The notes beneath the pieces are model-generated. The model saw only the letters and a program-made list of their open reading frames with translations, did no database searches and had not been told where the DNA came from. This document shows, one piece after another, positions 30,235 through 60,699 of a stretch of 64,000 nt of DNA; the stretch's first letter is position 1; each line of letters opens with the position of its first letter. Made by a program: the position numbers and the translations under genes. The stretch is from an uncultured bacterium (lineage in GTDB: Bacteria; Auribacterota; Erginobacteria; Erginobacterales; CAZKCI01): contig CAZOYW010000007.1 of assembly GCA_964584165.1 (NCBI GenBank), forward strand, positions 32,886-96,885, written 5' to 3'.

Positions 30235-30287
30235 GTCCATACTGTCCATAAAGTCCATATTGTCCATAACTGTCCTATCGTCCATCC
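30235..30287 (+). promoter_or_regulatory. six GTCCATA heptamers at 9-10 bp phasing immediately upstream of the hypD ATG
   Basis: gtccatactgtccataaagtccatattgtccataactgtcctatcgtccatcc. Confidence 0.5.
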
Positions 30288-30292
30288 AGCCC

Positions 30293-32512: not shown

Positions 32513-32522
32513 GTATTCCTCT

Positions 32523-35491: not shown

Positions 35492-35494
35492 GGG

Positions 35495-37053: not shown

Positions 37054-37060
37054 GACGGCT

Positions 37061-39037
37061 CTAGAGTTTCCAGACCAGGAGGCCCACCAGCGCCAGGACG
37101 ATCCCCAGTATATAAAGGTTCAAACGCCCGTGCTGAAGGAGACGGAGCCGGGCCAGGAGCCCCCCCATGATCGAAAAAATCGGACGGTAGACGCCCTCCT
37201 GGTAGAGATCGGGCGTTTCGCTGGAGAAGGAGGATGACGCGGGGAAGAAACCCATGGGCGGAACGAAACGGCGGCGGGTGCGCAGGAAAACGCGGAACAT
37301 CCGCATCAGGGGATCGGCGAAGGAGGAGGCGGTGTATTGCATCCGGGGCGACGGCGCGATGTAGCCGCAGTCCCAGGTGACGGAGGCGCTCACCTCCCGG
37401 CCGCGGAGAAGGCGGTCTCGCGCCCAGTAGAGAAGGAGGGCAAGGCCGATCCCTCCCGTCGCCACCGCCGCGATCATGGTCAAGGCGTCGCCCACGCCCG
37501 CCGGGGCCGAAGACAAGCCGGCCACCACGCCGACCGCCGGCTGGAGGAATGGGATGATGAACGACCCGCCGAGGCCGATGGCGGCGCAGGTGGTCGCCAG
37601 AATCGCCATCGGCATCTTCATCGCCCCTCCCGATTCATGGGCCGCGGCGGACGCGGAGGAGCGCGGCTCGCCGAGGAAGATCACGCCGAAGGCCTTGACG
37701 AAGCAGGCCACCGCCAGTCCCCCGATCAGTGCCAGCGCGGCGAGGCCGATCATCCCGGCGAAAACCGTCCCGACGGGTTGGCGGCTGGGCTCGGCCACGG
37801 CGCGCAGGGAGGACAGGTAGATCAGGAACTCGCTCACGAAACCGTTGAGCGGCGGCAGTCCGCAGATGGCGGCCGAGCCGACGAGAAAGGCGAGTCCCGT
37901 AGCCGGCAACCGCTTGAGGAGTCCGCCGAGATGCTCGATATCGCCCGTCCCGGCGGCGTGGATGACCGACCCGGCGGAGAGGAAGAGGAGGCTCTTGAAG
38001 ACGGCGTGGTTGATCACGTGGAGGAGCGCGCCGGCCAGGCCCAGAAAGGCCATGGCCGGAGAGCCGTAGGAAATCCCCAAGAGGCCGATGCCGATACCGA
38101 GCGCGATGATCCCGATATTTTCGACGCTGTGGTAGGCGAGGAGGCGCTTGAGGTCGTGCTGGGCGAGCGCGAAGAGGACGCCCAGGACGCCGGAGACGAC
38201 GCCGATGGCGACGAGCGACCAGCCCCACCAGGGAGGCGGCGTCCCGAGAAAGGTGAGAACGCGCAGCAGGCCGTAGATCCCGGTCTTGATCATGACGCCG
38301 CTCATCACGGCGGAGACATGGGAGGGGGCGGCGGGGTGGGCCTCGGGGAGCCAGACGTGGAGGGGAATGAAACCGGCCTTGGCGCCGAAGCCGACGAGGG
38401 CGAGGAGGAAGGCCGCTCCGGCGAAGCCGGGGAGGGCGGCGGCGCGGGCGAACCCGCTGAACTCCAGGCCCTCCGCTCCCCGCCCGAGCAGCGCGAAGAG
38501 GGCGAGCAGGAACGCCGCCCCGATGTGGGCGGCGATCAGGTAGATCCAGCCGGCCCGGCGAACGCCGGCCTTCTCGCTGTCGAACATGACCAGGAAGAAG
38601 GAGGCGATCGACATCGCCTCCCAGGCGAGGAGGAAGAGGAGTCCGTCGCGCGCGAGCACCACCAGGAGCATGCTGGCGGTCAAGAGGTGGAAGAAAAACC
38701 AGGAGGCGGCGATGTCCCTCTTCCCCTCCCGGTCCCTGAGGTAGGCCGACCCGTATATCGCCGAGAGAGCTGTTATGGCGAGTATCGGGAGCGCGAAGAC
38801 GGCGGAGAGGGCGTCCAGGGCCAGGAGGATCGATCCGAATGGCATCGACCAGCCGAGGCGAAGGACGCCCAGAGAGTGTCCGCTCAACGCCATGAGGACC
38901 GGAGGGAGGCCGAGGAGAGCGGCGGCGACGGCGACCGCCGGCCCGACGACCCGCGTCCATGACGGACGGCCGATCGTGGCCAGGCAGAGGAACGCCCCCC
39001 CGAAGAGGACACTAAGAGCCGCGACGATCCAGATCAC
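37061..39037 (-). CDS. NuoL/MrpA/HyfB-like antiporter-type membrane subunit
   Basis: 658 aa. KAGFIPLHVWLPEAHPAAPSHVSA motif. GTG start overlapping the upstream stop. Confidence 0.8.
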   Translation of the reverse strand: MIWIVAALSVLFGGAFLCLATIGRPSWTRVVGPAVAVAAALLGLPPVLMALSGHSLGVLRLGWSMPFGSILLALDALSAVFALPILAITALSAIYGSAYLRDREGKRDIAASWFFFHLLTASMLLVVLARDGLLFLLAWEAMSIASFFLVMFDSEKAGVRRAGWIYLIAAHIGAAFLLALFALLGRGAEGLEFSGFARAAALPGFAGAAFLLALVGFGAKAGFIPLHVWLPEAHPAAPSHVSAVMSGVMIKTGIYGLLRVLTFLGTPPPWWGWSLVAIGVVSGVLGVLFALAQHDLKRLLAYHSVENIGIIALGIGIGLLGISYGSPAMAFLGLAGALLHVINHAVFKSLLFLSAGSVIHAAGTGDIEHLGGLLKRLPATGLAFLVGSAAICGLPPLNGFVSEFLIYLSSLRAVAEPSRQPVGTVFAGMIGLAALALIGGLAVACFVKAFGVIFLGEPRSSASAAAHESGGAMKMPMAILATTCAAIGLGGSFIIPFLQPAVGVVAGLSSAPAGVGDALTMIAAVATGGIGLALLLYWARDRLLRGREVSASVTWDCGYIAPSPRMQYTASSFADPLMRMFRVFLRTRRRFVPPMGFFPASSSFSSETPDLYQEGVYRPIFSIMGGLLARLRLLQHGRLNLYILGIVLALVGLLVWKL

Positions 39038-39750
39038 TCCTGGACGGCTCCTTCCTCCCTGTTCCCGGATGGGCGATGCGGGATGCTGCCGTCGACCAGA
39101 GCCGCGGCGGCGGCGATCTCGGCCCGGCTTCCGCGGCGGGAGATCGCATCGGAGAAAGCGGGATGGCGCAGCGCGAATGACAGCCGGGAGAGAAGATTCA
39201 GATGGGCCGAGATGGTGGGAGAGACGATCATGAAGATCGTGTGGACCGGTTTGCCGTCCAGAGAGCCGAAATCGATCGCTTTCTCCAGGAAACAGAGCGT
39301 CACCATCGGCTGGGGGATGAACATGACGATGGGGTTGCGGACATGGGGGATGGCGATCCCTTCGCCGATCCCCGTGGATCCCAGCGACTCCCGGGCCAGG
39401 AGCACGCGCAACAGGAACATCCGGTCGACTTCCTTCGGGAGCGCCATCATCTCGATGGCGGTTTTCAGGACCGAATCTTTGTCATCACCCTCCACCCGGT
39501 AGTGAATCCCCCCTGCCTGGAGGGCTTCCGCCAAGGAAGGGAACGGCACCTTGTCGCGGTCGGGGTCGGAGAAGATCTCGGTCGAGACGTTGACGCGGTG
39601 GGCCGTCGCCCATTCCAGGAGCTCGGCCCGGTTGATCCGGTATTGCTCGTTGATCTTGAAAACCGGGAGATTGTTCCCCTTGATCCACCGATAAACGGTC
39701 TTCTCCGACACGTTCATCAGCTCGGCTGCTTCTCTGACCCCTATCTGCAT
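39034..39750 (-). CDS. HTH (MerR/excisionase-type) DNA-binding domain fused to PTS EIIA(Fru/Ntr)-type domain; first gene of the Ehr-like operon
   Basis: N-terminal MNVSEKTVYRWIKGNNLP HTH. C-terminal EIIA-2-like domain with GIAIPH active-site His motif. Confidence 0.6.
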   Translation of the reverse strand: MQIGVREAAELMNVSEKTVYRWIKGNNLPVFKINEQYRINRAELLEWATAHRVNVSTEIFSDPDRDKVPFPSLAEALQAGGIHYRVEGDDKDSVLKTAIEMMALPKEVDRMFLLRVLLARESLGSTGIGEGIAIPHVRNPIVMFIPQPMVTLCFLEKAIDFGSLDGKPVHTIFMIVSPTISAHLNLLSRLSFALRHPAFSDAISRRGSRAEIAAAAALVDGSIPHRPSGNREEGAVQE

Positions 39751-39881: not shown

Positions 39882-40125
39882 ACGATCCAAGCCAGCCAAG
39901 CCCATGCGAGCGCTATCTTGGATGCTATTGTAGCGTCGGGCCTCCTGGCCCGACGTCGTCAGAACCGTCGTAGATGCCTTTCAGTTGCGATATCCAATTT
40001 CGCTCCGAATCTCCGCATCCTGTGTTTTCCATTCGTAGCCTCGGACCTTAATCCCCTCTTCCCGCTCCGCGAATTGTAGGCCGGGTCTGTGACCCGGCGC
40101 GAGGGCGAAGCGGGGGATTTCTTCT

Positions 40126-40488
40126 CTAGTCGCTCTTGTTTTCCTCATCGCTTTCGCGATTATGCGAATCTCCATCTATCCCCGCCCTTTTCAATAGATT
40201 GAATACTAACTTGCCCCTAAACAGCATATACCACGCCAACACAACATATAGCATTATGTGAATAACATTATTTGCGAATGCCGATATATCGATATTTTGC
40301 GCCGTCTTGGCAATATATGTCGCCATATCTTGCCCGGATTCGTCGATATGAATCCTGGGCATGGCGATATACTTGTACATGGATATCATAAGGGATGGCA
40401 GTATCATGACGGCCTTAATGCCGCAATATACGCCGAATGCCCTTACGATCACCCAGGCTGTTTCAGCCCCGTTCATATTCATCTTCAC
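40126..40488 (-). CDS. small membrane protein (2 TM), AT-rich, island-borne
   Basis: 120 aa. GC content far below the genome background. Confidence 0.4.
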   Translation of the reverse strand: MKMNMNGAETAWVIVRAFGVYCGIKAVMILPSLMISMYKYIAMPRIHIDESGQDMATYIAKTAQNIDISAFANNVIHIMLYVVLAWYMLFRGKLVFNLLKRAGIDGDSHNRESDEENKSD

Positions 40489-41360
40489 GTTATTTTCCTT
40501 TTTGGGTATTCAGACCCGAAGCCTCATCCCCACATTTCACTCAACATCCTCGCCCGTTTCAACTTATTCATGAGCACCAAGCGGGGTGCCAATAACCCTT
40601 GGTGAAAGTTGACCGGGCCGATCCTCTTGGCAGGTCTATGAGCAAGACACTACATTTAAGACTTCAAGATCTCAGATTGAGATCTTAAACGCTGCCCGTC
40701 GTTCCGCACACCATGCACTGCGGTTCCCGCCCATCCCTATCTCGCGGGCCTGTTCCCCGGCATTAGCCGTATCTCACGAGGTGATGGCTTGCCTGTATTT
40801 CAACGATCACTTCCTGATATATCGCGATGTTCATCGGGAACTGTTCGCAAATTGCGCTGAATTAGGTGAACCCGCCAACTCGGCCGCACGTCTCGATCAG
40901 GCCGAATGAGAATGTTGACTGATTGATACGTCCTCTGTCTTCATCTTTTTTGCTCGCTTATAAAGCCCCGAAACCCCGGAGGGGTGATCGACAATAGCCA
41001 AGGGGTTTACCCCCTGCTCTGAAGGCAAAATCAGCATGGAGCCCCGGAAGGGCGACGGAATCCCGCCGCCGAAGCTAGCCTCGCGAAATCGCCTGCGCTC
41101 CATCCCCTGCCTTCCTGTCCCGTGCCAATCCAAGGAAGGCTCTCATTTACAACTGTCCAGTTTTTGGGGGGCAGGTCATCCCGAGCATAGGAAAAATAAA
41201 TGATGGTGCACTTTTCAACATAATTTCTCTCCCTAATGGTTAAGGGATTTACTCTAACGGCTCCCGCTCAAGCCGCCCCCCTTTTCCCAGCACTCATTGA
41301 TCGGCGGCTTACAGCCGATTTTTAACCCTAATTTCGGCTTTAAGCCGTTATAAACCCCCA

Positions 41361-41396
41361 TTTATGCGTATCCCTTTGCTAATCAACCAGATTCCG
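41361..41396. repeat. 36-bp direct repeat R1 (tttatgcgtatcc...caaccagat.ccg), 3' of the RSD gene
   Basis: 30/36 identical to R2 at 42818-42853. Confidence 0.6.
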
Positions 41397-41435
41397 TGGT
41401 CCGACTACATGTTCGATATCTCTAGATATTACTCC

Positions 41436-42482
41436 TCACGCCTTGTCATTATCCTTTTTATTGTCTTCATTTTTAGTTGTTAGTGGAAAACCCAATAAGC
41501 CCGGAAATGTCCCCAATCCATACTTTGATATGTCAATCCTGAATTCGTTAGGATTTGGTATACCAGCTATATTTGGACTATCTAAAATGTACATATTCGG
41601 ATCAAATATATTGATCTTTTCTATCTGAAACGCATTCAACTTATTTATCAGTTCCTCCTTTTCCTTTTTTTCAATTTCTAGCTTGTCGATTTTCACTTTA
41701 AGATCTTCAATTATGCAAGACAATTTATTTACCTCCATCTTATGAACTTCAGCAGTTTCGTCAATCTTCCCCTTTAAATACTGTATATATGAGCCCATCC
41801 CATCCGCGCTTCCAGCGAGGCCATTAAATATTTTCAGGTACGGCATTAGTATTGGATTATCTTTGTCGTATGGATATCGCATTTTATGATCGATTTCGCT
41901 CCACGCCTCTTCAAATATAGTTCGTACTTGAATTTCAACAATAACAGGTTCCTTTGTCGGTTGGGTTTTAATTATGTAATGTACAGATCTATATCCATAC
42001 GGGTGGTTTTCCACCACACATCCCTTGTCTGTATACCTATTTTTTTCGTCGCCTTCACGAATATATGCCTTCGGCTTTTCGATGGTCTCCCATTCATTAA
42101 TAATATATTCATGAATATCATCCCAATCATTTTTAAATAAATGCATTACCCTTACCCCAGCTAAATCAATTACAATGTTCCGATAATTATCTATAGCAAT
42201 TCTAACCTCGGAGTTTTCAAGAGATTTTCGAATAATTTTCTCAATTAAATGATCCGATTCTTTAATGCGTGTTTTTACTGAATGAGCTTTAGGTATATTT
42301 CTTAGCCTTTCGGCAATAGAATTCGCTGCTTGAAATAGATTCATAAATGTTTTATCATAATCTTCGACTATCGCCATCAAATTGGCCCACTTTAATCCTG
42401 ATTTAATATAGTTATCATCGGGTATTCTATACTTCTTGATAAAATCCTTATAATTCATAGCACGACTCCATTGTTTATGCAT
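41436..42482 (-). CDS. RelA/SpoT-domain (RSD) protein, toxSAS/CapRel-like single-chain architecture
   Basis: HSVKTRIKESDHLIEKIIRK, YRSVHYIIKT, VEIQVRTIFEEAWSEIDHKMRYPY (synthetase-fold motifs). C-terminal ~140 aa with coiled coil. Low GC. Confidence 0.7.
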   Translation of the reverse strand: MHKQWSRAMNYKDFIKKYRIPDDNYIKSGLKWANLMAIVEDYDKTFMNLFQAANSIAERLRNIPKAHSVKTRIKESDHLIEKIIRKSLENSEVRIAIDNYRNIVIDLAGVRVMHLFKNDWDDIHEYIINEWETIEKPKAYIREGDEKNRYTDKGCVVENHPYGYRSVHYIIKTQPTKEPVIVEIQVRTIFEEAWSEIDHKMRYPYDKDNPILMPYLKIFNGLAGSADGMGSYIQYLKGKIDETAEVHKMEVNKLSCIIEDLKVKIDKLEIEKKEKEELINKLNAFQIEKINIFDPNMYILDSPNIAGIPNPNEFRIDISKYGLGTFPGLLGFPLTTKNEDNKKDNDKA

Positions 42483-42599
42483 TATTCAATTCCACCTTGG
42501 ATCCCTGGATTCGATAGCTTATTCCTTACTGGTGAAGATAGCTTTGAGAACAAAACAGCTACAACATCACCTCCAATGCATTCTCTTGCTTCAACCTGT

Positions 42600-42790
42600 C
42601 AATGAGCTCTAGGCGGGGGGCCTGGATATTCCCCTTCGGCGGGAAGTGGAGCCCCGCACCATTTTTACGCCTCAATGCGAAACTCTAAGCGAAGTGCCCT
42701 TGGCCAATCTATCGCCGCAGAAGACCGGGGCACAAGCCGAAGGGTCGACCGAGCGGATCCGCTTAGGCCGGCCTTTGAGCAAGACGCTGC
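42600..42790 (-). pseudogene. degraded 3' fragment of a GIY-YIG-family paralog (related to the C-terminus of the 47014-47817 gene)
   Basis: The minus strand translates to VLLKGRPKRIRSVDPS... and ...NIQAPRLELIDR. Compare KYIVLLKGRPKRVGPVDSSPKVNIQAPRLALLDRLI in the intact gene. Frameshifts and a stop are present. Confidence 0.5.
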
Positions 42791-42817
42791 TGTTGTTTTG
42801 ACTCCTTTTTATGCGTA

Positions 42818-42853
42818 TCCGCCTGTCAAGCAACCAGATGCCGAAGCCTAACC
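42818..42853. repeat. 36-bp direct repeat R2, immediately 3' of the PHP-SMC ATPase gene
   Basis: See R1. Confidence 0.6.
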
Positions 42854-42863
42854 GCGCATTTAT

Positions 42864-45845
42864 CTATCCAGCCTCGCCTAAAATATGTTTCCACTGTAAT
42901 CGGTAACGCCGCTCACGTTCTAAAAATGCACGTTCCCCTCCCTCTAGAATCCCGCACACCGTCGTCCGGATATTCGGGTTTTCAAGCGACCCGCTCTGAT
43001 ATTTAATGTGTGGAAGAGTGCCGTCTATACTCGGAGTGGCAGTTGCAATAATCACCTGATCCGCATCCGTATTAACGACCAAGTTGGCATTGTGAGTTAC
43101 GATAATTACCTGTCGGCGCTTACGTACTTGACGAAAGTGCGGTACCAAATCATCGAAAACTGATTTGGGATCAAGATTCTCCTCCGGTTGATCTATTAGA
43201 AGGGGGCGCCGGTCGTTGCGATCAATTGCGAGGTATAGCAAAAGAAGCACTATTCCACGCGTACCGGGAGATACCTGTTCAACAACAACCCCATCATACT
43301 CAATCCCATAACGAATTTCGATGTGCTCAGTGCTGTAAAGCCACGCTCCGATCTGGCGAAACCACTCTACCTTTTTCCCGGGTTCGATCGATGAAGGCAT
43401 TGCAGCCTGAATATCATCCGAATGTTTCGCCACGAAATCATGCATAGCCGTCGCCACTTCATCGGGGTTTCCGACGCGCCACGGCGATAAAAGAGCATCC
43501 TTTGTAATGCTGGCCAGTGTGCCGTGCCCTCGAAATGGTGTGTTCTTCCGCAGATCGAGCAATTCTTCCCCAGCCTTAACCCAATCATTGAAACTAACAT
43601 GTCGCCTGACAACAAAACGCATTTTGGCGAGCGCCCCTTGCTCTCCTTCGAGCTCTTTGTGCAACGGCGTATAAAGACGTGCTAGAGCCCGCTCTTCTTC
43701 TGCAAATGTATTGAAAATCGAGCGGTAGGCTTGTCTGCGCGTGGCTCGTAGAGCGCGTAGTCGTTCGTCCGCCCCTTCCCCATTGTCGATCGCGAGGTCT
43801 AGCTTTTTTAGGCTAGTCTCATTCGCTGCAATCGCTCTATTGAGGATGTCATATTTCCTTTGCTTAATCTCGTCACCCCCAACCTGCTTTTTCGCGGCGG
43901 CACGCGCAGATTTCAGCGCGTCGAGCGGCCAAACGTTCAACGGCACTTTCGTAAGATCTAACGGATTAGTAGGGTCGACGCATTGAAGCTTAGTAATCTC
44001 ATTCGCGACTTTGCTTTTAGCTTGGGTGATGATCGTCTCCACATCGCCGGAATATTTTAGCCGGAAATTCCCCCACTCGATTTCAGTAAGACCTGACTCA
44101 GCGAACCTCTCGCGCATTTCAGCCAAACGTTGCGCGGCATCTTGATCGCGAATGAATATCACCTCGGCGAGCAAGTCATCCAAAGCTTTTTGCCTCCGCC
44201 TCAAGCTTTCAACGCGGTTTTCTGCGTCCGTACATGCCAGATCAAGTTCGAGCAACCGCTGGGCTCGTTTTCCAGCATCCTTCGGCAGCAGGTTCTCAAG
44301 ATCTTTGCGAGATTTCTTGAGTTGCACGCCCAAACTATTGCGATCAATTCGGAGCTTGGGCAATTGATCCTGCAACCGCATCTCCATGGCAATTTTCGCA
44401 GAAGCTGTCGCCACACTTTCGATTTGCTGCTGGCGGCGGCGTCTGATCGGTTTCAGCAACAGATCTGCAAGCGCCTCGAAAGATTCGGTTTGCATACGGT
44501 CTACTGGTTCGGTTTGGTCGAAAATCACCCTCTCAATCTCTTGTCGTAGTTCGACGGCAAGCCCTGCAGATGAGCAAAGTTGTTCCACGAACTGCTGTGA
44601 GAGATAGCGCACCTGCGGCATTTCCTCCGTCCATTCGTCGGGTGAACGGAAGGGAGCCAACTTCCTCTCACCATCGGCCCAGACCTCTTCAACTTGAGCG
44701 TCGCCGATGAGATCGTCAGGTGAGGTGGCTCGCCGCAAAAATGAGGATTCACCCAAGTTGTTGCCGATTGCCTGAGCACCGGCGGCAATCATGTCAAGCA
44801 GCGCGGTCTTGCCAGAACCCCGCTCGCCAATGATGCTGATAAGTCCATGGTTCAATTCGATTTCTTTATTGAGGACCCAAGACATGCCGATGGGCTTTAT
44901 GCTCTCGAGGGTAACCGAATCGGGGATTTCAGTCGGAGATCGTTCGCTGATCGAGACTCGTTCTTCCGGCTCAATGACGGCCTGGCGGAGACTCTCAAAT
45001 GCGAGATCGCCCTTGATCCAGCAATAGCGCGCCAAGTCTGGAGCAGCGACACGGTCCAATTGGTGAGCGTCACATCCATGGAGGCAAGGCTTGATTGCAC
45101 CATATCTGCGTTCAATCGCCTTGCGATCCATCCCGGCCTTGAACCCTAGCCAAAAATCATGGTCGGCTTTGTTGCCTGAGAAGATTATATGCGAGAAACC
45201 CTCGATTTCTTGCCGGATAGCGGAGAAGGCATCATCCTCTTGGAGGCCAGAAGTCCCATCACATTTCGAACTTGCGACTGCCACGAGGCAGTTGTGTCGA
45301 ACCCAGGAATCTTCACGAAAAAGACCTCGCAGCTGGTCAAGGGTTACTTTGAACTGACCAACACCTTCTCGGAATGCACCTTCATCATCCGTTTGCTTTG
45401 GATTATACTTGCGGCCCAATGCGATGAGTTCCGAGCGCGCGCATGAATATTTTCGCTCCTTATACTCGAACGTGAGCTTTCCGAGAATTCGTTCAATCTG
45501 CTGCTCGTGATCCAGATCATCAGGAGAAAACAAGAGATGAATATTGATGCCTTTACTTTGCGCGGTCTTGAGCTCAAGCCTCATTTCAATATTTGGGAAA
45601 ATAAGGTCCACTTGAGGCAGCCGGCCCTCAGCTTTATGCGCACAGATTTGCTTATAACTCTGGATGCACAAATAATCCGTGATGCCTATGGCTCGGATGG
45701 TAGGGGATGCATTTTCGATCTTTTCCAGATAACCCTGCCAGGCACCAGCGAACTGATCACCCAGCACGGTTCCCGGTGCATGAATATGGGGGTCCCAGCG
45801 GTGCCATTCTGAACCGCGCAGGCTCCATTTTGGTGTTGCTTTCAT
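42864..45845 (-). CDS. PHP (polymerase/histidinol-phosphatase) domain fused to SMC/RecF/ABC-type coiled-coil ATPase (993 aa)
   Basis: N-terminal WDPHIHAPGT...AIGITDY (PHP motifs). Walker A IIGERGSGKTALL. Roughly 450 aa of coiled coil. C-terminal LLIDQPEENLD (Walker B / D-loop) and VTHNANL (H-loop). GGAGGA RBS; AT-rich upstream region. Confidence 0.8.
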   Translation of the reverse strand: MKATPKWSLRGSEWHRWDPHIHAPGTVLGDQFAGAWQGYLEKIENASPTIRAIGITDYLCIQSYKQICAHKAEGRLPQVDLIFPNIEMRLELKTAQSKGINIHLLFSPDDLDHEQQIERILGKLTFEYKERKYSCARSELIALGRKYNPKQTDDEGAFREGVGQFKVTLDQLRGLFREDSWVRHNCLVAVASSKCDGTSGLQEDDAFSAIRQEIEGFSHIIFSGNKADHDFWLGFKAGMDRKAIERRYGAIKPCLHGCDAHQLDRVAAPDLARYCWIKGDLAFESLRQAVIEPEERVSISERSPTEIPDSVTLESIKPIGMSWVLNKEIELNHGLISIIGERGSGKTALLDMIAAGAQAIGNNLGESSFLRRATSPDDLIGDAQVEEVWADGERKLAPFRSPDEWTEEMPQVRYLSQQFVEQLCSSAGLAVELRQEIERVIFDQTEPVDRMQTESFEALADLLLKPIRRRRQQQIESVATASAKIAMEMRLQDQLPKLRIDRNSLGVQLKKSRKDLENLLPKDAGKRAQRLLELDLACTDAENRVESLRRRQKALDDLLAEVIFIRDQDAAQRLAEMRERFAESGLTEIEWGNFRLKYSGDVETIITQAKSKVANEITKLQCVDPTNPLDLTKVPLNVWPLDALKSARAAAKKQVGGDEIKQRKYDILNRAIAANETSLKKLDLAIDNGEGADERLRALRATRRQAYRSIFNTFAEEERALARLYTPLHKELEGEQGALAKMRFVVRRHVSFNDWVKAGEELLDLRKNTPFRGHGTLASITKDALLSPWRVGNPDEVATAMHDFVAKHSDDIQAAMPSSIEPGKKVEWFRQIGAWLYSTEHIEIRYGIEYDGVVVEQVSPGTRGIVLLLLYLAIDRNDRRPLLIDQPEENLDPKSVFDDLVPHFRQVRKRRQVIIVTHNANLVVNTDADQVIIATATPSIDGTLPHIKYQSGSLENPNIRTTVCGILEGGERAFLERERRYRLQWKHILGEAG

Positions 45846-45970
45846 CTGATAACTATAGTCCTCCAGTTGCTTGTTCGCGATATATTCAGATCCCGAATAT
45901 TGCCCATTGCCATATAATTTCCCCGATATTTACGCTAGGTATAGCTATAATTTGAGGTTATCATCCAATA

Positions 45971-46417
45971 TTACAATTTCTGAATCCATTTCGCGAAATC
46001 GGATTGTGTCTTCTTCCCTACTGCAACGGATCCCCCGCGGGTAAAATGTTTGCTTCCCGCTATCCAAATGTATCCGCCAAAATCAGATGGAAGAAATAAA
46101 TCCCCATATTGAATCATGGCTACCTTTTCTTTCCCGAAATGGCCGAAGAAATAGCCAAACTCAAACATAACATTCAGATTTGGGATGTTCTTTTTCTGTT
46201 TCTTGATTATCGTTCGGGATTCCGGAGAGAAAACAAGCAAGGCTCCTTGCACTTTCGCGCGGATAGAGTCTAGTTCTTCCAGTAAGTTTCTCCCGGGAGT
46301 AAACGCATCCCACCACGGTAAGAAGGAGACAACATTTGAGGTTAAAGCTTTGACAATCGCTTTGGCTTGGGACCTGGCTGCCGACGACGAACCGATGAAT
46401 AGCTTTATTTCTGGCAT
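45971..46417 (-). CDS. TIR-like domain protein (COG4271/PF10137-type predicted nucleotide-binding TIR-like)
   Basis: 148 aa KLFIGSSS...PWWD.F..G...L..L......GALLVFSPE...NVMFEFGYFFGHFGKEKV...LPSD.GG pattern. Confidence 0.55.
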   Translation of the reverse strand: MPEIKLFIGSSSAARSQAKAIVKALTSNVVSFLPWWDAFTPGRNLLEELDSIRAKVQGALLVFSPESRTIIKKQKKNIPNLNVMFEFGYFFGHFGKEKVAMIQYGDLFLPSDFGGYIWIAGSKHFTRGGSVAVGKKTQSDFAKWIQKL

Positions 46418-46530
46418 ATTTGTTCCTCCCTTCCATTGTTTAATTTCAGATATTATTTGAATACGTAGGCCAACGTCCTAACCTACTTTAACCTATCCAT
46501 AAGCGCCGAACGAATGGTATGAATATTCAT

Positions 46531-46896
46531 CTATTTCAGAACAATGGATAGAATACCCACAAGTAGCCCTATAATGCTTGCAATCGCTCCCCAAGTTTGT
46601 AGATTTACATCAATCTCGGGATATTTATCTCTAATATATTTCGCCAATATAATACCTCCAACGCAGGAACCCCCTACAAGAACAAGCAGGAATGCTGTCT
46701 TGATCAATATTGGGCCTATATTATAGCTTGGCAAAGGTGTTCCTAGCGAAGATTCCCAAATGTAGACTATTGGCCGAACAAGTGCTCCATGCCGCGTTGC
46801 AGGGAAAAACACTGCTAATATTAGCAATAATAGCAATACTGCAATTGTGCACAAACATCCAAACTGATCTGTTTTATTAAAATTGCTTCTAAACAT
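46531..46896 (-). CDS. small membrane protein (3-4 TM)
   Basis: 121 aa. Hydrophobic segments CLCTIAVLLLLLILAVFF, AFLLVLVGGSCVGGIIL, AIASIIGLLVGILSIVL. Confidence 0.45.
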   Translation of the reverse strand: MFRSNFNKTDQFGCLCTIAVLLLLLILAVFFPATRHGALVRPIVYIWESSLGTPLPSYNIGPILIKTAFLLVLVGGSCVGGIILAKYIRDKYPEIDVNLQTWGAIASIIGLLVGILSIVLK

Positions 46897-47013
46897 AAAT
46901 ATGCCCTTTTAGTTTCAGCGAGATATGCTCGCTAATATCGACACCGCCTCTGCCAACGTCCTCGACCGCTTCAACCTGTTCATAAGCGTCAGGCAGGGGA
47001 CCTGACTACCTGA

Positions 47014-47817
47014 CTACAGTGCATTTGCCAATGTCTTCGCCCGGATCAGCCGATCCAGCAAAGCCAGGCGCGGGGCCTGGATATTGACCTTCGGCGAGGA
47101 ATCTACCGGACCAACCCTCTTGGGGCGGCCTTTGAGCAACACGATATATTTCCCTGACTTGCGCCAGGGCTTGATCTTCCGGATGCGGCCATAATGGGTC
47201 ACTTGCTTGATGGGCGAGGTAAGGTAAATCGCAAGGTATTTCAGCCTCGGGATGACCCGCTTGGAAAGGCGGATGGCATACCAACGGTTTTTGCCCAGGA
47301 ACTCCTTCTCGAACCCATCCTTGTGAGCCGGGCAGACAAGCGTGTCATACTCCCCTCTTCGCCGGCGGACATCACAGCTTGAAGATACCTTCTTCGGAAC
47401 GCCTCCGGTGATATCAGCCAACTCGCGCCGCTGGGACTGAACGATCCGGCTCTTGAACACCCGGTAAAGATCGCGCGAGGCGGTGATTTTCCCTGAAACC
47501 CGATTCCCTTTGGGCGAGGCTATCCTCAGAACCAGCGACTCAAGCTCCCGCAAATGCTCGTCGCCCTGAGTCAGATAGATGCTGAACCGGTCCCATTCCT
47601 CGGCATGGCGATCCTTGAGGTGGCCATGCAGCCTTGATCGAAGGTTCCGGGCCAGGCCGACGTAGTAGAGGCTATCCCCGGCATAAAGAGCATATACCCC
47701 GCTCTTCCCCCGGGCGAATTCGGTAATGATATCCGGATATCTTTTTATCGCCGTCCGGGCGATGTTCTCCAAATGCTCGACGACGAGCGGGGCTTTCCCA
47801 ATCCGTTTTCTTCTCAC
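47014..47817 (-). CDS. GIY-YIG nuclease-domain protein with ~170-aa C-terminal domain
   Basis: GVYALYAGDSLYYVGLARNLRSRLHGH (GIY-YIG). Cys/His pair CDVRRRRGEYDTLVCPAH. Degraded copies of its 3' end elsewhere in the island. Confidence 0.6.
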   Translation of the reverse strand: MRRKRIGKAPLVVEHLENIARTAIKRYPDIITEFARGKSGVYALYAGDSLYYVGLARNLRSRLHGHLKDRHAEEWDRFSIYLTQGDEHLRELESLVLRIASPKGNRVSGKITASRDLYRVFKSRIVQSQRRELADITGGVPKKVSSSCDVRRRRGEYDTLVCPAHKDGFEKEFLGKNRWYAIRLSKRVIPRLKYLAIYLTSPIKQVTHYGRIRKIKPWRKSGKYIVLLKGRPKRVGPVDSSPKVNIQAPRLALLDRLIRAKTLANAL

Positions 47818-48078
47818 TTGGCATCTCCTTTCACAATCCCAATCGCTTCCTCCGTCAGTTCAAATAGCTCATAATGACCGAACTTGTACAGGCGGGAAGG
47901 TTGCGCTCGAAGACTTCGACCAGGCGTTGGATCTTGTCCGAGGCGGGCATGGTCTATACCGGAGGGTTGTTTATAATCATACAAATCCCCGTTTTCCAAT
48001 TCCATAAGATATTCCATTACATAATATATTCCAGTTCCCCCCTCCCTCCTATTCATAGCCCCCCCCGCCTGCTCCCCC

Positions 48079-48463
48079 TGGGACACTTCCTGTCCGATCG
48101 GACAAGGTTTGTCCACTTTTGATCGGGAATGGAGGATTTCCGGCCCCCCCAACCCAGCATTGATCTGGGACAACTCGTGTCCGATCGGACAGGGTTTGTC
48201 CACTTTTGAGCAGGAATGGAGGGTTTCTGGCCCCCCCAACCCAGCATTGATCTGGGACAACTCGTGTCCGATCGGACAGGGTTTGTCCACTTTTGAGCAG
48301 GAATGGAGGGTTTCTGGCCCCCCCAACCCAGTATCGAGCTGGGACAACTCGTGTCCGATCGGACAAGGTTTGTCCGTTTTTGATCGGGGAACGAGGGCTT
48401 TTCCTGCTCCAAACCCACCCATTGAGTTGGGACAACCCATGTCCGATCGGACATGGGTTGTCC
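48079..48463. repeat. array of five ~87-bp tandem repeats, each containing the perfect palindrome TGTCCGATCGGACA (last unit a perfect 36-bp palindrome)
   Basis: gggacaactcgtgtccgatcggacagggtttgtcca...cccccccaacccagcattgatct repeated. Lies in the divergent region between the GIY-YIG and PaaX-like genes. Confidence 0.85.
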
Positions 48464-48567
48464 CAATGTCGTCTCCTGATGAGTTCATTGCCCTTGAAAT
48501 CTCTGCAAGAAATATCCGTTCAAAAGAGTCCTTATAGTAGGGCGGGCAATGTCCGCATGAGCGCCGA

Positions 48568-49356
48568 TTGCCCCTCCATCGCGGAGACGCGCGGATGCCA
48601 ACCGTTGCCGAAGATATCCTGATGCTCCTCGCCGAGGGAGCGTTCCGGCTCCTGACTTTCCGCTCCCTGTTCACGCTCGACTGGGGGTTCAGCTCTCCGG
48701 CTTATCGCAAAACGATCACCCGGCTCGAAAAAGACGGCGCGGTCCGGCGGGTGCAACATAGACGCGACGTGTATCTTCATCTCACCGATCGAGGCAGAAA
48801 AATTCTGGAACAACGCCGTCCTCCCCCGAGAAAATCCCCGCCGACCTGGGATCGTCTCTGGCGGCTGGTGATCTTCGATATCCCGGAGAAAAGAAACGAG
48901 GACCGCCTTCTGCTCCGTCGGTATTTGACGGCATCGGGGTTCGCAAAAGTGCAAAAGAGCGTTTGGATCGCTCCCTATGACCGCGAAGAACAAGTGCAGG
49001 AGTTCACCCGAAAAATCGATATCCAACGCTATGTATTGCAGCTGACGTTTAAAAAATTCCGCAACCTCGAGGAGCGGGATTTAGCCGCGTCGTTCTGGGA
49101 TATCCAAGGTCTGCAAGTTCGCTACCAGGAACTGATCCAACGCTACGCGAAAAGAATGGCCGTGCTCCCGGCAGGGACAAGGGGGGCGGCGATTGGGCGC
49201 AGACAGTTCTTGAACGATCTGCTCTGGGATTACCAAACTATCCTGGCCTTAGACCCTCAACTGCCGACCGAGCTGCTTCCGGCGAACTGGAGCGGCGCGG
49301 CCGCGAAGCAGTTCGTGAATCGCTGCCGCACCCTTTTCTCCAGCGGCCCTGTGTAG
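48568..49356 (+). CDS. PaaX-family winged-helix transcriptional regulator
   Basis: WDRLWRLVIFDIPEKRNEDRLLLRRYLTASGFAKVQKSVWIAP matches the PaaX C-domain consensus. N-terminal wHTH. The start may be ATG 48595. Confidence 0.6.
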   Translation: MPLHRGDARMPTVAEDILMLLAEGAFRLLTFRSLFTLDWGFSSPAYRKTITRLEKDGAVRRVQHRRDVYLHLTDRGRKILEQRRPPPRKSPPTWDRLWRLVIFDIPEKRNEDRLLLRRYLTASGFAKVQKSVWIAPYDREEQVQEFTRKIDIQRYVLQLTFKKFRNLEERDLAASFWDIQGLQVRYQELIQRYAKRMAVLPAGTRGAAIGRRQFLNDLLWDYQTILALDPQLPTELLPANWSGAAAKQFVNRCRTLFSSGPV

Positions 49357-49385
49357 CGCAATCCGGATATGCGTTGTTGCACGCT

Positions 49386-49507
49386 CGGACAACTTCTGTC
49401 CGATCGGACAGGAGTTGTCCCGATGAAACCAGGTTTTCGGGAGGCAGTTTCCCCCTCTTTCATGCTTGGATTTGGGACAAATCCATCCGATCGGACAGGT
49501 TTGTCCC
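49386..49507. repeat. two further 34-36-bp palindromes of the TGTCCGATCGGACA family, 3' of the PaaX-like gene
   Basis: cggacaacttctgtccgatcggacaggagttgtccc and gggacaaatccatccgatcggacaggtttgtccc. Confidence 0.8.
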
Positions 49508-49532
49508 AAGCCCGAAGCAGGCGGAAAGGGGG

Positions 49533-49780
49533 GATGAGGGATGAGAGATGAGGCATAAGAGATGAGGCATGAGGGATGAGGCATGAGGAACAAGGAGGGG
49601 CGACTGCCGATGCTGGACCGTCCCGGCGCAGGCGGTTTCCCGATTTGGCCCGTGCCGCGACATTCCAGATGGGCGACCGCCGATGCTGGACCGACCCGGC
49701 GCGGGCGGTTTCCCGATCTGGCCCTTGCCGCGACATTCCAGAGGGGCGACTGGCGATGCTGATCCGTGCCGGCGCGGCCT
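49533..49780. repeat. GATGAGG(C/G)AT heptamer run, then 2.5 tandem ~75-bp repeats, upstream of hypE
   Basis: gatgagggatgagagatgaggcataagagatgaggcatgagggatgaggcatgagg; then ggggcgac.gccgatgctggaccg.cccggcgc.ggcggtttcccgat.tggccc.tgccgcgacattccaga.g two times plus a partial copy. Confidence 0.75.
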
Positions 49781-49807
49781 TCCTCGGGGGTGATATACTG
49801 TTGCCCG

Positions 49808-50821
49808 ATGAGCAAGCAGCGGACCATCACTATGGACGACGGGAGCGGGTCGCTCTCCTCCCGGGAGCTCCTCCGGGAGAGCGTCCTCCCCTATCTCCGG
49901 AACCCCGTCCTCAACCGGCTGGAGGACGCGGCCCGCTTCCCGGCGGGGGGCGGGGAGTTCGCCTTCACCACCGACGCCTTCGTGGTCTCGCCAATCGTCT
50001 TCCCGGGCGGGGACATCGGGAAGCTCGCGGTCTGCGGGACGGTCAACGACCTCGCCGTGATGGGCGCCCGCCCCCTCGCCCTCGCCTCCGCCCTCATCCT
50101 CGAGGAGGGCTTCCCACGGGCGCTTCTGGAAAGGATCGTCCGCTCGATGGGAATCTGGGCGAAGCGGGCCGGCGTCCGGATCGTCGCGGGCGACACCAAG
50201 GTGGTGGGAAAGGGGAACGCCGACGGAATCTACATCTCCACCTCCGGCGTCGGCCGGGTGATCATGAAAACGCCCCCGGCGGCGGAGCGGATCCGCCCGG
50301 GCGACCGGGTGATCTCAAGCGGGACGGCCGGCGACCACGGCCTGGCGATCCTGGCCGCCCGGGAGAGGCTCGACATCAGCCCCCAGCTCAAAAGCGACTG
50401 CGCTCCCGTGAACGGACTGATGGAGCGGATGGTCAAATCCGGGGCGGAGATCAAGTTCATGCGCGACCCCACGCGGGGAGGGCTGGCCGCGGTACTCAAC
50501 GAGATCGCCGAGGGGCGGGACTGGGGGATCGGGATCGAGGAACGCTCCGTCCCGGTCCATCCCCGGGTTCGGGCGGCGGCCGAGATACTCGGCCTCGACC
50601 CGCTGGTCCTCGCCGGCGAGGGGAGGATCGTGGCCGTCGCCGCCGATCGGGACGCCCGGAGGCTCGTCGCGGCGATGCGGTCGCATCCCCTGGGGAAACA
50701 GGCGGCCGTCATCGGCGGGATCGTCCGCGGGCATCCCGGCCTGGTCTCCCTGAGGACCCGGGCGGGGGGAGAGCGGGTCATGGACTGGCCCCGGGGCGGC
50801 GACCTGCCGCGGATCTGCTGA
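49808..50821 (+). CDS. hypE: [NiFe]-hydrogenase maturation factor HypE
   Basis: AVCGTVNDLAVMGARP, AGDTKVV, C-terminal ...PRIC. Confidence 0.85.
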   Translation: MSKQRTITMDDGSGSLSSRELLRESVLPYLRNPVLNRLEDAARFPAGGGEFAFTTDAFVVSPIVFPGGDIGKLAVCGTVNDLAVMGARPLALASALILEEGFPRALLERIVRSMGIWAKRAGVRIVAGDTKVVGKGNADGIYISTSGVGRVIMKTPPAAERIRPGDRVISSGTAGDHGLAILAARERLDISPQLKSDCAPVNGLMERMVKSGAEIKFMRDPTRGGLAAVLNEIAEGRDWGIGIEERSVPVHPRVRAAAEILGLDPLVLAGEGRIVAVAADRDARRLVAAMRSHPLGKQAAVIGGIVRGHPGLVSLRTRAGGERVMDWPRGGDLPRIC

Positions 50822-54380: not shown

Positions 54381-54510
54381 AGAAACCACGAATCCCGCGA
54401 ATCTTCGCGAATATGTCCGGCTGGGCCCGGCGACCGAAAACGCGGATTAGCGCCGGCCGACCGGCAGGGATTCCACGGATTGATCGCGAACGATTGATCG
54501 CCGCCGGGCT
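54381..54510. repeat. ACGAAT-heptad repeat element (locus C)
   Basis: aaccacgaatcccgcgaatcttcgcgaat ... cacggattgatcgcgaacgattgatcg. Confidence 0.5.
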
Positions 54511-54538
54511 AGAACATCCAGGAAAGGAGAAGAAGACC

Positions 54539-60082: not shown

Positions 60083-60091
60083 CTTTCGCTT

Positions 60092-60698: not shown

Positions 60699-60699
60699 T

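Follow-up and report, generated by a model that had tools for sequence, protein, structure and literature searches.

The DNA lying between an Ehr-like operon and hypE in the window, which is the whole 64,000-nt stretch analysed here from an uncultured bacterium, has a foreign composition and a defence-like gene content, and this low-GC stretch is probably a chromosomal defence-gene hotspot and not a self-mobile island. The hotspot is built around a decayed restriction-modification (RM) module, and apart from an odd regularity in the joins between its cassettes it is fairly ordinary as such features go.

Composition, extent and setting

The GC content in 1-kb windows was found to be 0.34-0.57 between ~39.5 and 49.5 kb and lowest (0.344) at 41.5-42.5 kb, while both flanks stood at 0.65-0.75 (~0.69 before the drop). 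Windows of 200 nt placed the edges at ~39,750 and ~49,590, giving a length of ~9.8 kb, so that the start at 40,100 in the original prediction was ~350 nt too far to the right. The GC3 values were 0.82-0.96 for host genes, and for the ORFs of the island they ranged from 0.32 (TM121), 0.33 (RSD) and 0.49 (TIR-like) to 0.53 (TrlF), 0.57 (TM120), 0.68 (PaaX-like) and 0.70 (GIY). The predicted GC drop is thus real both in sliding-window GC and in GC3 (from ~0.9 to 0.32-0.70), and the reading of the stretch as compositionally foreign was upheld by both. All of the genes named in that prediction were recovered from ORFs and profile searches, and its direct repeats, pseudogene remnants and palindromic arrays were all located by repeat and similarity searches (Table 1).

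Table 1. Features of the low-GC stretch, numbered as in the window.
Feature	Position	Strand	Description
TM120	40126..40488	-	120-aa predicted membrane protein; conserved left edge
Relic E	40539..40646	-	Degenerate copy of GIY codons ~228-264
Strain-variable core	40757..47011	.	Bounded by blastn breakpoints vs L005
Acido-Lenti-1 RNA motif match	40972..41017	-	Sub-threshold; Rfam 31.6 bits vs gathering score 37, E 4.8e-4
Motif M, degenerate copy	41361..41405	-	Directly after RSD stop codon
RSD	41436..42482	-	RelA/SpoT-domain nucleotide pyrophosphokinase, 348 aa; PF04607 73.7 bits
Relic D	42574..42842	-	Motif M, GIY codons ~226-241, ~100-nt divergent insert, unit-B-type copy
TrlF	42864..45845	-	TrlF-family PHP + ABC/SMC-like ATPase, 993 aa; NF045780 624.8 bits, cut-off 350
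TIR148	45971..46417	-	TIR-like protein, 148 aa, domain only; PF10137 69.5 bits; CAP12/Pycsar-effector TIR type
Relic C	46468..46530	-	Short, weak unit-B-type copy of GIY 3' end, between TM121 and TIR-like gene
TM121	46531..46896	-	121-aa predicted membrane protein (ORF)
Unit B	46941..47010	-	In-frame ~75-nt duplicate of last 25 GIY codons, just past stop codon
GIY-267	47014..47817	-	N-terminal GIY-YIG nuclease fused to C-terminal PUA-like (YTH/ASCH/EVE) domain
Type IIG RM relic	47817..47950	-	First 23 + last 19 codons, different frames; 134 nt
87-bp tandem repeat	48078..48463	.	4.4 copies; TRF score 511; between RM relic and PaaX-like gene
PaaX-like regulator	48568..49356	+	PaaX_M 75.9 bits, PaaX_C 42.4 bits
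Two more palindrome copies	49387..49509	.	Repeat families D3, D5; inverted repeats I18, I23; also matched by pattern search; just downstream of PaaX-like gene

The hypD (30260-31561) and hypE (49766-50821) genes are ~18.2 kb apart, in agreement with the ~18 kb first reported, but the island is not by itself what splits them. About 8 kb of the gap (31736-39750) is occupied by the host-composition Ehr-like operon and an HTH/EIIA gene, which lie outside the island, and in all the strains seen it is this Ehr-like operon, on the opposite strand, that separates hypD from the hypE side. Adjacency of the two genes is nevertheless reasonable as a general expectation, because hypD is directly upstream of hypE in the distant genome L014. 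A relative with a 58%-identical EIIA has kept the EIIA/Ehr operon with no hyp genes beside it, and the one scan of the genome collection turned up just a HypE of 48% identity, from a distant MAG.

Conserved edges and a strain-variable core

Low-GC DNA was present at the same position in three near-identical strains (L005, L006 and L061), the flanks being 98.3-99.7% identical. The edges are common to the window and all three, with TM120 and relic E on the left and the palindrome array and PaaX-like gene on the right. The TM120 gene is present in L005 and L006, and its protein is 96% identical in L061; the PaaX-like gene is conserved in all strains (99.6% identical in L061). Relic E, which marks where the variable core stops on the left, is likewise shared by all four strains, and tblastn gave it E values of 1.7e-5 (L006), 4.9e-5 (L061) and 0.019 (window).

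The core, which in window order comprises the RSD kinase, the TrlF-family ATPase, the TIR-like protein and a membrane protein, is a different matter. Positions 40,757-47,011 are absent from L005, whose flanks are 99.2-99.7% identical, and unrelated genes stand in place of the window core in all three strains, the alternative cassettes showing no similarity to one another or to those of the window. The locus holds an RM relic, GIY, TM121, TIR148, TrlF and RSD in the window; an RM relic, GIY and a 261-aa gene in L005; an HNH + ABC-ATPase gene, a GIY tail and then 231-aa and 190-aa genes in L006; and an intact RM gene, a 550-aa gene, a relic, a 188-aa gene and a ThsB-like TIR protein in L061. Defence-type domains in the alternative cassettes include HNH + ABC ATPase, ThsB-like TIR and HEPN, and several of their genes are without a recognisable domain. 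Thus relatives carry the same genes in the same place at the edges but not in the core, and variation of the stretch between strains is borne out by cores that differ between near-identical flanks. The comparison that had been proposed with an empty site yielded none, all four strains found having low-GC DNA here.

A 0.7-kb stretch of the core without a convincing ORF contains the Acido-Lenti-1 match, and the DNA around it (40966-41083) has a counterpart of 92% identity between genes of L006.

The RM module and the cassette joins

The GIY-YIG domain of GIY-267 scored under the Pfam cut-off and was confirmed by fold, and the fusion models as the architecture of a modification-dependent nuclease. 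GIY-267 is the orphaned partner of a type IIG RM gene. A homologue of the latter lies upstream of GIY in at least 16 of 33 metagenome loci, mostly abutting or overlapping it, and from these sequences RM and GIY appear to be a conserved module. The two parts of the RM relic matched the L053 RM protein in tblastn (N-terminal part E 1.1e-8, C-terminal part E 0.004), and L061 has an intact 1,028-aa type IIG RM gene at this position. The GIY gene is under purifying selection, with 43 synonymous and nine non-synonymous codon differences between the window and L005.

On the other side of the RM relic, the PaaX-like gene is divergent from the RM/GIY genes. It is called as 253 aa in other assemblies, implying a start near 48595, and its protein scored 105 against the PaaX equivalog (cut-off 264). 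Each copy of the neighbouring 87-bp repeat carries a 34-40-nt palindrome, GGACAAC-N4-GTCCGATCGGAC-N4-GTTGTCC, and this pattern gave 12 matches on the two strands, or six palindromic sites, where 0.01 were expected. Upstream of PaaX the copy number varies, being five in the window, one in L005, six in L061 and four in L063.

The cassettes are separated by degenerate copies of the last ~40 GIY codons. Unit B (repeat family D4) is conserved in an alignment of the window, L056, L053 and L006, and blastn homology to L056 and L053 extends through it. Relic C belongs to direct-repeat family D6 and is 78% identical to 46952-46988 (blastn to L023, E 2.7e-5), with a protein-level E value of only 1.6 and hence weak. 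Relic D gave two tblastn segments (E 2.5e-6 each); its motif M (42806-42842) is an exact match with none expected by chance, its unit-B-type copy covers the last 22 GIY codons, and relics of its type are found after different genes in L061 and L053. The degenerate motif M is 84% identical over 45 nt to L053 5708-5752 (blastn E 8.8e-8).

Nearly all of the relics start at one nucleotide, and at least four different upstream sequences join there, at ...tc followed directly by TTGCTCAAAGG. A shared start beside unrelated upstream DNA is not predicted by plain homologous recombination and hints at a site-specific step. The ~75-110-nt units that derive from the 3' end of GIY could be sites, as could motif M beside them, for a recombinase encoded elsewhere, as in an integron- or Xer-like array: every unit ends in a copy of one sequence, all the genes point the same way, motif M with a relic follows unrelated genes in both the window and L053, and the relic-punctuated layout recurs in L053, an unrelated lineage. 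Such an array is nonetheless unlikely. There is no integrase nearby, TrlF homologues elsewhere lack such a repeat, the breakpoints vary between strains, the units clearly stem from the coding sequence of a real gene that has since decayed in them, and the pattern would look no different if a single truncated relic in an ancestor had afterwards been copied and gene-converted.

A classical integrative island, in which a phage- or ICE-like element made one site-specific insertion into an empty hypE-proximal site and then decayed, would account for the sharp GC drop and foreign codon usage, for the pseudogene relics, and for the low-GC patches headed by GIY homologues in unrelated hosts (e.g. L056, L043 and L036). 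It is quite improbable, however, as profile searches revealed no integrase, excisionase or transposase domain in the ORFs scanned, the window has no tRNA gene, and a repeat search found no att-like direct repeat bracketing the island. The spread of GC3 across the island genes points to several donors, and the strains differ by internal replacement of the core and not by presence or absence of a whole element. Of the 'defense/mobile island' originally proposed, the defence-associated families are therefore present, while no mobility machinery was found among the ORFs scanned.

Under the preferred reading of a chromosomal hotspot, we infer the original insertion from composition only. Foreign DNA would have settled once between the HTH/EIIA regulator gene of the Ehr-like operon and hypE, carrying the PaaX-like regulator, the palindromic operator-like array and the type IIG RM gene with its usual 267-aa GIY-PUA partner, in which the PUA-like domain would be a reader of modified bases. 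The edges would then have served as homology anchors, with the core being swapped through recombination with incoming DNA. Evidence for recombination, as against a fixed att site, comes from the left breakpoint, which varies with the strain pair in blastn (40757 for L005, 40789 for L006 and 40920 for L061), and from GIY, for which the identity of window and L005 is only 92%, against 99.2-99.7% for the flanks. In the window strain deletion has left the RM gene as its relic and the GIY-PUA gene has been retained, followed in its reading direction (towards lower window coordinates) by three units (the membrane protein; TIR-like + TrlF; RSD), each of which ends in a degenerate GIY copy.

Cassette genes and their possible roles

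The RSD gene has the lowest GC in the island, and its product has a C-terminal coiled coil and a disordered tail, with catalytic motifs invariant in 33 homologues. Its PDB sequence matches were RelP/RelQ, and its AF2 model (pLDDT 80.5) matched RelP in Foldseek with an E value of 1e-10 and CapRel with 9e-7. Sequence and fold thus place RSD nearer to RelP/RelQ, which are housekeeping small alarmone synthetases, than to CapRel, and the earlier label 'toxSAS-like' is unproven. The TrlF protein, for which >3,800 homologues were found, scored only 97 against 1000 for the Ppl model, and PADLOC gave partial Ppl matches. TIR148 matched PADLOC TIR effector models (E 1e-19) and aligned to the Cap12 TIR-STING structure 7un8 with its NVxFEFG motif conserved. 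Neither TM120 nor TM121 matched a family in Pfam, PADLOC or NCBIfam, and TM121 is the only member of its 90% cluster.

The four core genes are on one strand, and TIR148 and TrlF, 125 bp apart in one relic-bounded unit, may be a functional pair. A single defence system could be envisaged, with TrlF as sensor and the TIR-like NADase, RSD kinase and membrane protein as effectors, especially as contigs from several sequencing runs contain all four genes at 100% identity. These contigs represent one strain, however, and so are not independent evidence. TrlF homologues of 41-73% identity stood alone in all eight other contexts, with no TIR, RSD or similar membrane-protein neighbour, and the cassettes are therefore probably independent single-gene systems. 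Moreover, the GC3 values of the four genes are unlike (0.33, 0.53, 0.49 and 0.32), and relics part RSD and TM121 from the TIR-TrlF pair, making a joint system improbable.

A mistaken joining of low-GC contigs from a second organism into a high-GC MAG is extremely unlikely, even though the DNA evidently comes from a metagenome assembly and the contrast in composition is extreme. The cassette joins recur at 100% identity in independent assemblies from several runs (L001-L004), and different projects are represented among the assemblies that reproduce the joins. Host genes lead into the low-GC edges in L005, L006 and L061, and the DNA from the edges across the core is covered at 100% identity by L001 and L002.

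Within a defence-gene hotspot, the parts probably act as independent single-gene anti-phage modules, judging from what is known of their families. GIY-PUA would cut DNA in which a base is modified, and TrlF, as an ATPase resembling Ppl, would sense DNA and act via its PHP phosphoesterase domain. Hydrolysis of NAD+ would be the task of the TIR-like protein, and RSD would arrest growth, either by alarmone synthesis or by pyrophosphorylating a target. Control of the divergent defence operon would fall to the PaaX-like protein, which would bind the palindromes.

Composition, boundaries and gene content of the low-GC region

GC content, measured in 1-kb windows, was 0.65-0.75 on both sides of a stretch at ~39.5-49.5 kb and 0.34-0.57 within it, the lowest value being 0.344, at 41.5-42.5 kb. 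In 200-nt windows the edges of this low-GC region lay at ~39,750 and ~49,590, the left at the start of a gene encoding an HTH-EIIA fusion protein and the right just upstream of hypE. The drop described in the original prediction is real, and third codon positions agreed with it: GC3 was 0.82-0.96 in host genes versus 0.32-0.70 in the island ORFs, a sharper contrast than that in GC content itself. The island ORFs were also unlike one another in GC3, and this spread suggests more than one donor. Smaller GC dips, to 0.60-0.65, were seen at 1500-3000, 16500-18500, 24500-25500 and 60000-61500.

The flanking genes, hypD, the Ehr-like operon and hypE, matched their earlier description (see table). 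A search of representative genomes with the EIIA protein recovered a relative with a 58%-identical homologue (locus L075, 10001-10714), where the HTH-EIIA gene stays with the Ehr operon and hyp neighbours are missing. As the gene travels with the operon, it counts as part of the host flank, and its product is probably a dedicated regulator of the Ehr-like complex. Several simple repeats were also seen. A GGGATGA heptamer is repeated ~8 times at 49531-49588, immediately upstream of hypE, and a 73-bp tandem repeat of 2.5 copies (49595-49777), also found in the related strains L005 and L061, runs into the hypE start. Two large host proteins have internal DNA repeats with an offset of ~120 nt, a GH123/FG-GAP protein (29462-30174) and, at 54900-57100, an 899-aa protein (54413-57112) with no Pfam match.

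The genes of the low-GC region were identified by family scans (Pfam, NCBIfam and PADLOC) of ORFs of at least 120 aa. The gene calls made from the sequence were borne out almost one for one, and all the genes lie on the minus strand except that for the PaaX-like regulator. Defence families among this cargo are the TrlF/Ppl-like ATPase, the TIR-like protein and GIY-267, a GIY-YIG nuclease domain joined to a PUA-like domain. A 286-aa ORF at 47814-48674 was rejected as a gene, as it reads through an 87-bp tandem repeat.

Features of the low-GC region and its flanks (window coordinates)
Feature	Position	Strand	Match or remark
hypD	30260-31561	+	host flank
Group-4-hydrogenase-like Ehr/Hyf operon	31736-39037	-	host flank
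HTH_17 (excisionase-type) and PTS-EIIA-2 fusion gene	39034-39750	-	overlaps first gene of the Ehr-like operon
TM120, 120-aa membrane protein	40126-40488	-	no family match
Relic E	40,539-40,646	-	common to all four strains
RSD, RelA/SpoT-domain protein	41436-42482	-	PF04607, 73.7 bits
Relic D	42,574-42,824	-	two tblastn segments, E 2.5e-6 each
TrlF-family ATPase, 993 aa	42864-45845	-	NF045780, 624.8 bits (cut-off 350)
TIR148, TIR-like, 148 aa	45971-46417	-	PF10137, 69.5 bits (cut-off 24.7)
Relic C	46,468-46,530	-	weak
TM121, 121-aa membrane protein	46531-46896	-	no family match
Unit B	46,941-47,010	-	in-frame ~75-nt duplicate of last 25 GIY codons, right after the stop
GIY-267, 267-aa GIY-YIG protein	47014-47817	-	Pfam below cut-off; fold confirms
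Type IIG RM relic	47,950-47,817		first 23 and last 19 codons, in different frames
PaaX-like regulator	48568-49356	+	PaaX_M and PaaX_C domains pass
hypE	49766-50821	+	host flank

The regulator passed the models for both of its domains, and its score on the PaaX equivalog TIGR02277 was 105.4 bits against a cut-off of 264.55; since there are also no paa genes in the window, it is PaaX-like only. It is accompanied by a palindrome, GGACAAC-N4-GTCCGATCGGAC-N4-GTTGTCC (34-40 nt), found at this locus only among all the loci compared. Six sites in the window give 12 two-strand matches against 0.01 expected. Five of them fall within the 87-bp repeat (48078-48463) between the relic of a restriction-modification gene and the PaaX-like gene, and one just after the latter, followed by a more degenerate copy at 49472-49509 (array 49387-49509). 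The upstream copies vary in number by strain, with 5 in the window, 1 in L005, 6 in L061 and 4 in L063. A reasonable guess is that the PaaX-like protein would bind the palindromes as a putative operator array and in this way control the divergent defence genes.

Scans for promoters and terminators gave site numbers no higher than in shuffled sequence. Rfam returned one sub-threshold sRNA motif and nothing else of note, a CRISPR-repeat match (E 0.088) being dismissed as chance. The motif, Acido-Lenti-1 at 40972-41017 on the minus strand (31.6 bits, gathering threshold 37, E 4.8e-4), sits in a 0.7-kb ORF-poor stretch, and ~210 nt around it recur intergenically in the related strain L006 at 92% (40966-41083) and 82% (41081-41178) identity. 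The match, like the names of homologues, was read as no more than a hint of an Acidobacteriota host.

Shared edges and differing cores in four strains

Searches for exact protein matches turned up three further assemblies from the same species-level lineage: L005 (on a 135-kb contig), L006 and L061 (in NCBI assembly GCA_016294925.1). Their flanks are 98.3-99.7% identical to those of the window. Low-GC DNA occupies the same place in all four strains and both edges are shared, the left consisting of TM120 and relic E, a copy of the GIY gene 3' end, and the right of the palindrome array and the PaaX-like gene.

The core between these edges differs from strain to strain. Read away from the PaaX-like gene, the window carries the relic of a type IIG restriction-modification (RM) gene followed by GIY, TM121, TIR148, TrlF and RSD. 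In L005 the same RM relic and GIY are followed by one 261-aa gene. The L006 core consists of an HNH and ABC-ATPase gene, the last 59 GIY codons, and 231-aa and 190-aa genes. At the position of the relic L061 has an intact RM gene of 1,028 aa (714.7 bits on the PADLOC REase_MTase_IIG model), then a 550-aa gene, a relic, a 188-aa gene and a 296-aa ThsB-like TIR gene. Defence families in these other cores are the type IIG RM and ThsB-like TIR proteins of L061 and the HNH and ABC-ATPase protein of L006. The alternative-core genes showed no detectable similarity to the window core genes or to each other, and a search of the window for relics of the other strains' cassettes found none. Relatives carrying the same genes in the same place would have spoken against an inserted island; this is what was found for the edges, but the core holds unrelated genes.

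The left breakpoint varies with the strain pair, falling at 40,757, 40,789 or 40,920. Between the window and L005 the GIY gene has an identity of only 92%, as against 99.2-99.7% in the surrounding flanks. Variable breakpoints and a diverged GIY gene fit homologous recombination with diverged donors. The codon differences between the two GIY genes (43 synonymous, 9 non-synonymous) indicate purifying selection. Chimeric assembly is an unlikely source of the window core, since it was reproduced at 100% identity in contigs from several independent sequencing runs.

The region had been proposed to be a defence or mobile island. Its foreign, defence-like and strain-variable content supports that description in part, but the expected marks of mobility were not found. 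No integrase or transposase domain was detected in island ORFs of at least 120 aa with Pfam, NCBIfam or PADLOC, no gene for a tRNA or tmRNA anywhere in the 64 kb, and no direct repeat bracketing 39.75-49.6 kb. A scan of viral contigs with the GIY alignment gave only two weak loci, so phages do not typically carry the GIY gene. An empty site was not recovered, each of the four strains being occupied, and the composition is thus the only basis for inferring an original insertion. A scan of the genome collection with HypE yielded a single locus, 48% identical, in a Verrucomicrobiia metagenome-assembled genome, where hypD lies immediately upstream of hypE. The low-GC observation itself is confirmed and its first interpretation partly supported, while a self-mobile island splitting hypD from hypE was rejected as the best description. 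The description that fits best is a strain-variable defence hotspot grown from a module of a type IIG RM gene and a GIY-PUA gene.

The restriction-modification module and the relics of its GIY-YIG gene

The GIY-267 family was found to have 2,407 detected members, nearly all of 267 aa. Of 33 metagenome loci, at least 16 have a type IIG RM homologue upstream of GIY, mostly abutting or overlapping it, and the two such RM genes that were scanned (~1,020 aa) encode Eco57I/MmeI-type methylase, TaqI_C and HSDR_N domains. A ~1,020-aa type IIG RM gene and, directly after it, the 267-aa GIY-YIG/PUA gene make up a conserved module of two genes. In high-GC hosts the pair often forms a 3-4-kb low-GC patch (loci L034, L043, L036, L045, L033, L029 and others). 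An intact fused endonuclease/methyltransferase/specificity protein is absent from the window, which holds the relic alone. A search with the enzyme of L043 gave nothing significant, and the relic was revealed by the closer enzyme of L053, a locus from an unrelated lineage.

The same decay was seen in L056, in an unrelated host, where a 91%-identical GIY gene accompanies a different, independently deleted RM remnant. This GIY gene borders a 10-kb low-GC block (L056 9900-20600) with Wood-Ljungdahl pathway genes as its flanks. Encoded in the block are a 1,644-aa beta-helix/PMP-repeat protein and an Xre-RES toxin-antitoxin pair, and three short pieces of it, of 152, 59 and 26 nt, are also present in the window (40705-40856, 40890-40946 and 40074-40099, respectively).

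Fold comparison showed that GIY-267 contains the GIY-YIG catalytic domain, fused to a modified-base reader domain as in type IV restriction enzymes. Judged from this architecture, the protein would be a modification-dependent nuclease, and such an activity would explain why GIY has been retained after loss of the RM partner. The type IV enzymes VcaM4I (HNH and PUA-like) and PD-T4-3 (GIY-YIG, 5hmC-specific) likewise join a nuclease to a PUA-like reader, but their sequence identity to GIY-267 is only 7-15% and, unlike them, GIY-267 normally has its gene directly behind one for a type IIG RM enzyme. No name for the RM and GIY-PUA pair appears in the libraries searched or in the titles and abstracts of the literature searched, and neither the module nor the layout outlined below is described in titles and abstracts on TrlF, Ppl/PHP, type IIG enzymes with GIY-YIG, or DUF4357/RAMA.

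Downstream of the intact gene the last ~40 GIY codons recur as degenerate direct repeats (relics C, D and E and unit B). Unit B is kept in the window, L056 (10805-10877), L053 (5899-5977) and L006, at about the same identity as the GIY gene. Read-through of the GIY TAG stop into unit B would append the terminal helix a second time.

The repeats split the core into three units, in the window order RSD, then TrlF with TIR148, then TM121, which is the reverse of the order leading away from GIY. Behind the TrlF stop lies a 37-nt motif, M (42806-42842, minus strand), of which a degenerate copy lies behind the RSD stop (41361-41405, minus strand). The same layout was found in L053, with an intact RM gene, three unknown genes, motif M with a relic and unit B, a 472-aa gene, a relic and a HEPN gene. 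HEPN also counts among the defence families of the cargo. Several cargo genes overall have no family match.

One feature of the region is unusual, namely that the relics have a common start point. Nearly every relic begins at codon ~226, at the junction between ...tc and TTGCTCAAAGGCCG, and the DNA just upstream of this start is of at least four unrelated kinds. In L023 the GIY gene appears to be full length, and its tail carries the same ~100-nt insert as relic D. The common start may reflect a site-specific step; alternatively, one old relic, already truncated, may have been copied and gene-converted afterwards.

A bolder reading of the layout is integrase-less cassette stacking, in which insertion takes place at codon ~226 of the GIY-YIG/PUA gene (between ...tc and TTGCTCAAAGG) and a copy of the tail is left or brought each time, giving integron-like growth, perhaps by Xer-type or nuclease-triggered recombination. 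We regard this as improbable. Among known array types, the observed layout itself comes closest to Rhs/CDI orphan modules and integron cassette arrays. As in these, the units run in the same direction, each is bounded by a repeated sequence, and the older a unit, the further it is from the intact gene. In contrast to Rhs/CDI, the repeat here comes from the very 3' end of the gene that anchors the array and not from a conserved pre-toxin region, and the cassettes are not toxin-immunity pairs. In contrast to integrons there is no intI integrase: no Phage_integrase-type domain was found in the region, the array is headed by the GIY-YIG/PUA gene, and the repeated units are decayed GIY coding sequence containing a 6-bp hairpin, CCAGGC-N4-GCCTGG. 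Were stacking of this kind to be true, it would be an undescribed way of accumulating defence cassettes at a site inside a widespread defence gene. Independent illegitimate-recombination scars were judged an unlikely origin of the relics, given the shared junction.

Motif M contains GGATACGCATAA (window 42806-42842 and 41361-41405, both minus strand; L053 5708-5754), which loosely resembles what we take to be the XerC-binding arm of dif (GGTGCGCATAA). The motif may be a candidate lead for Xer-dependent cassette movement.

Cargo proteins and the place of the region among defence hotspots

The ATPase matches the TrlF family over its full length. Its alignment to NF045780 covers residues 10-982 of the protein and all of the model (positions 1-944 of 944), and it is ABC/SMC-like, as is the Photorhabdus protein. 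Pfam finds no PHP domain, and the N-terminal H-x-H PHP-type motif was read by eye in the translation. No phenotype is known for TrlF itself. The ATPase has partial matches to the models of Ppl, a single-gene anti-phage protein (PADLOC Ppl E 3e-27); at 97.4 bits on the Ppl equivalog NF042955, against a cut-off of 1000 and with the best stretch C-terminal only, it is not Ppl. The 755-aa TrlF version P0001 is not on record. Some homologues of ~1,040-1,160 aa (P0013, P0025, P0029, P0035, P0040 and P0072) carry an extra gamma-glutamylcyclotransferase/AIG2-like region (PF13772, PF06094).

TrlF was named in a study of the Photorhabdus temperature-restriction locus trlRFG, where the founding protein works beside TrlG and TrlR; no mutations mapped to trlF in that study (bioRxiv 10.1101/2020.06.02.129163). 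Unlike that locus, the window and eight sampled contexts contain neither trlG (AlbA_2/HATPase_c_4) nor trlR. In four metagenome contexts, TrlF homologues of 57-73% identity have Mrr, RM, Gabija, integrase, toxin-antitoxin and NACHT neighbours. A TIR-like or RSD gene was found beside TrlF neither in these nor in four plasmids (41-48% identity), and no partner is conserved across the eight contexts. That TrlF, the TIR-like protein and RSD form one system was set aside on this neighbourhood evidence. The varied TrlF neighbours, the missing TrlG and TrlR, and GC3 values that differ strongly among the four core genes indicate that the core genes are probably not one system. TIR148 and TrlF may nevertheless be a functional pair, since one relic-bounded unit holds both.

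TIR148 shares with Cap12 and PycTIR (of CBASS and Pycsar) the PF10137 domain and the NVxFEFG motif, its NVMFEFG aligning to NVVFEFG of the Cap12 TIR-STING structure 7un8; the Glu of this motif is presumably catalytic. Unlike those effectors, TIR148 is the domain alone, 148 aa with no STING, SAVED or cyclic-nucleotide-binding domain. It scored 49 and 37 bits on the Cap12 equivalogs (cut-off 450), and no cyclase gene was found among the island ORFs scanned.

RSD had been called toxSAS-like. It has a RelA/SpoT synthetase fold with intact catalytic motifs, in common with RelP/RelQ, CapRel and FaRel2, and the motif residues are invariant in 33 homologues. However, in both sequence and fold it is nearer RelP/RelQ (fold match E 1e-10) than CapRel (9e-7), with FaRel2 at 7e-5, and no antitoxin was recognized, there being no adjacent small ORF with a family match and no convincing ORF in the next 0.7 kb. 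Its PADLOC match is weak and is to the candidate system PDC-S33. RSD resembles CapRel in its defence context and its long, variable C-terminal extension, which is predicted to comprise a coiled coil and a disordered tail; the coiled coil could be regulatory. A toxSAS role for RSD is therefore a hypothesis.

Chromosomal defence hotspots have been described in E. coli, Pseudomonas and Vibrio pangenomes. The region resembles them in having shared flanks with unrelated defence-type cargo between, foreign and mixed composition, variable breakpoints and no dedicated integrase. It differs in sitting inside a decayed type IIG RM and GIY-PUA module, in cassettes that are punctuated by the 3'-end relics of one gene with a shared start, and in its host, which is an uncultured bacterium of high GC.

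The region has no bearing on hydrogenase biology, as the hyp and Ehr genes seem to be intact. The hotspot lies in an uncultured high-GC environmental lineage, where such hotspots have been little mapped, and its alternative cores offer about a dozen unannotated candidate defence genes, recommended by position only. The RM and GIY-PUA pair, whose second member has ~2,400 homologues, would attack both unmodified and modified phage DNA, and the shared relic start, if it holds over more loci, would point to site-specific cassette gain.
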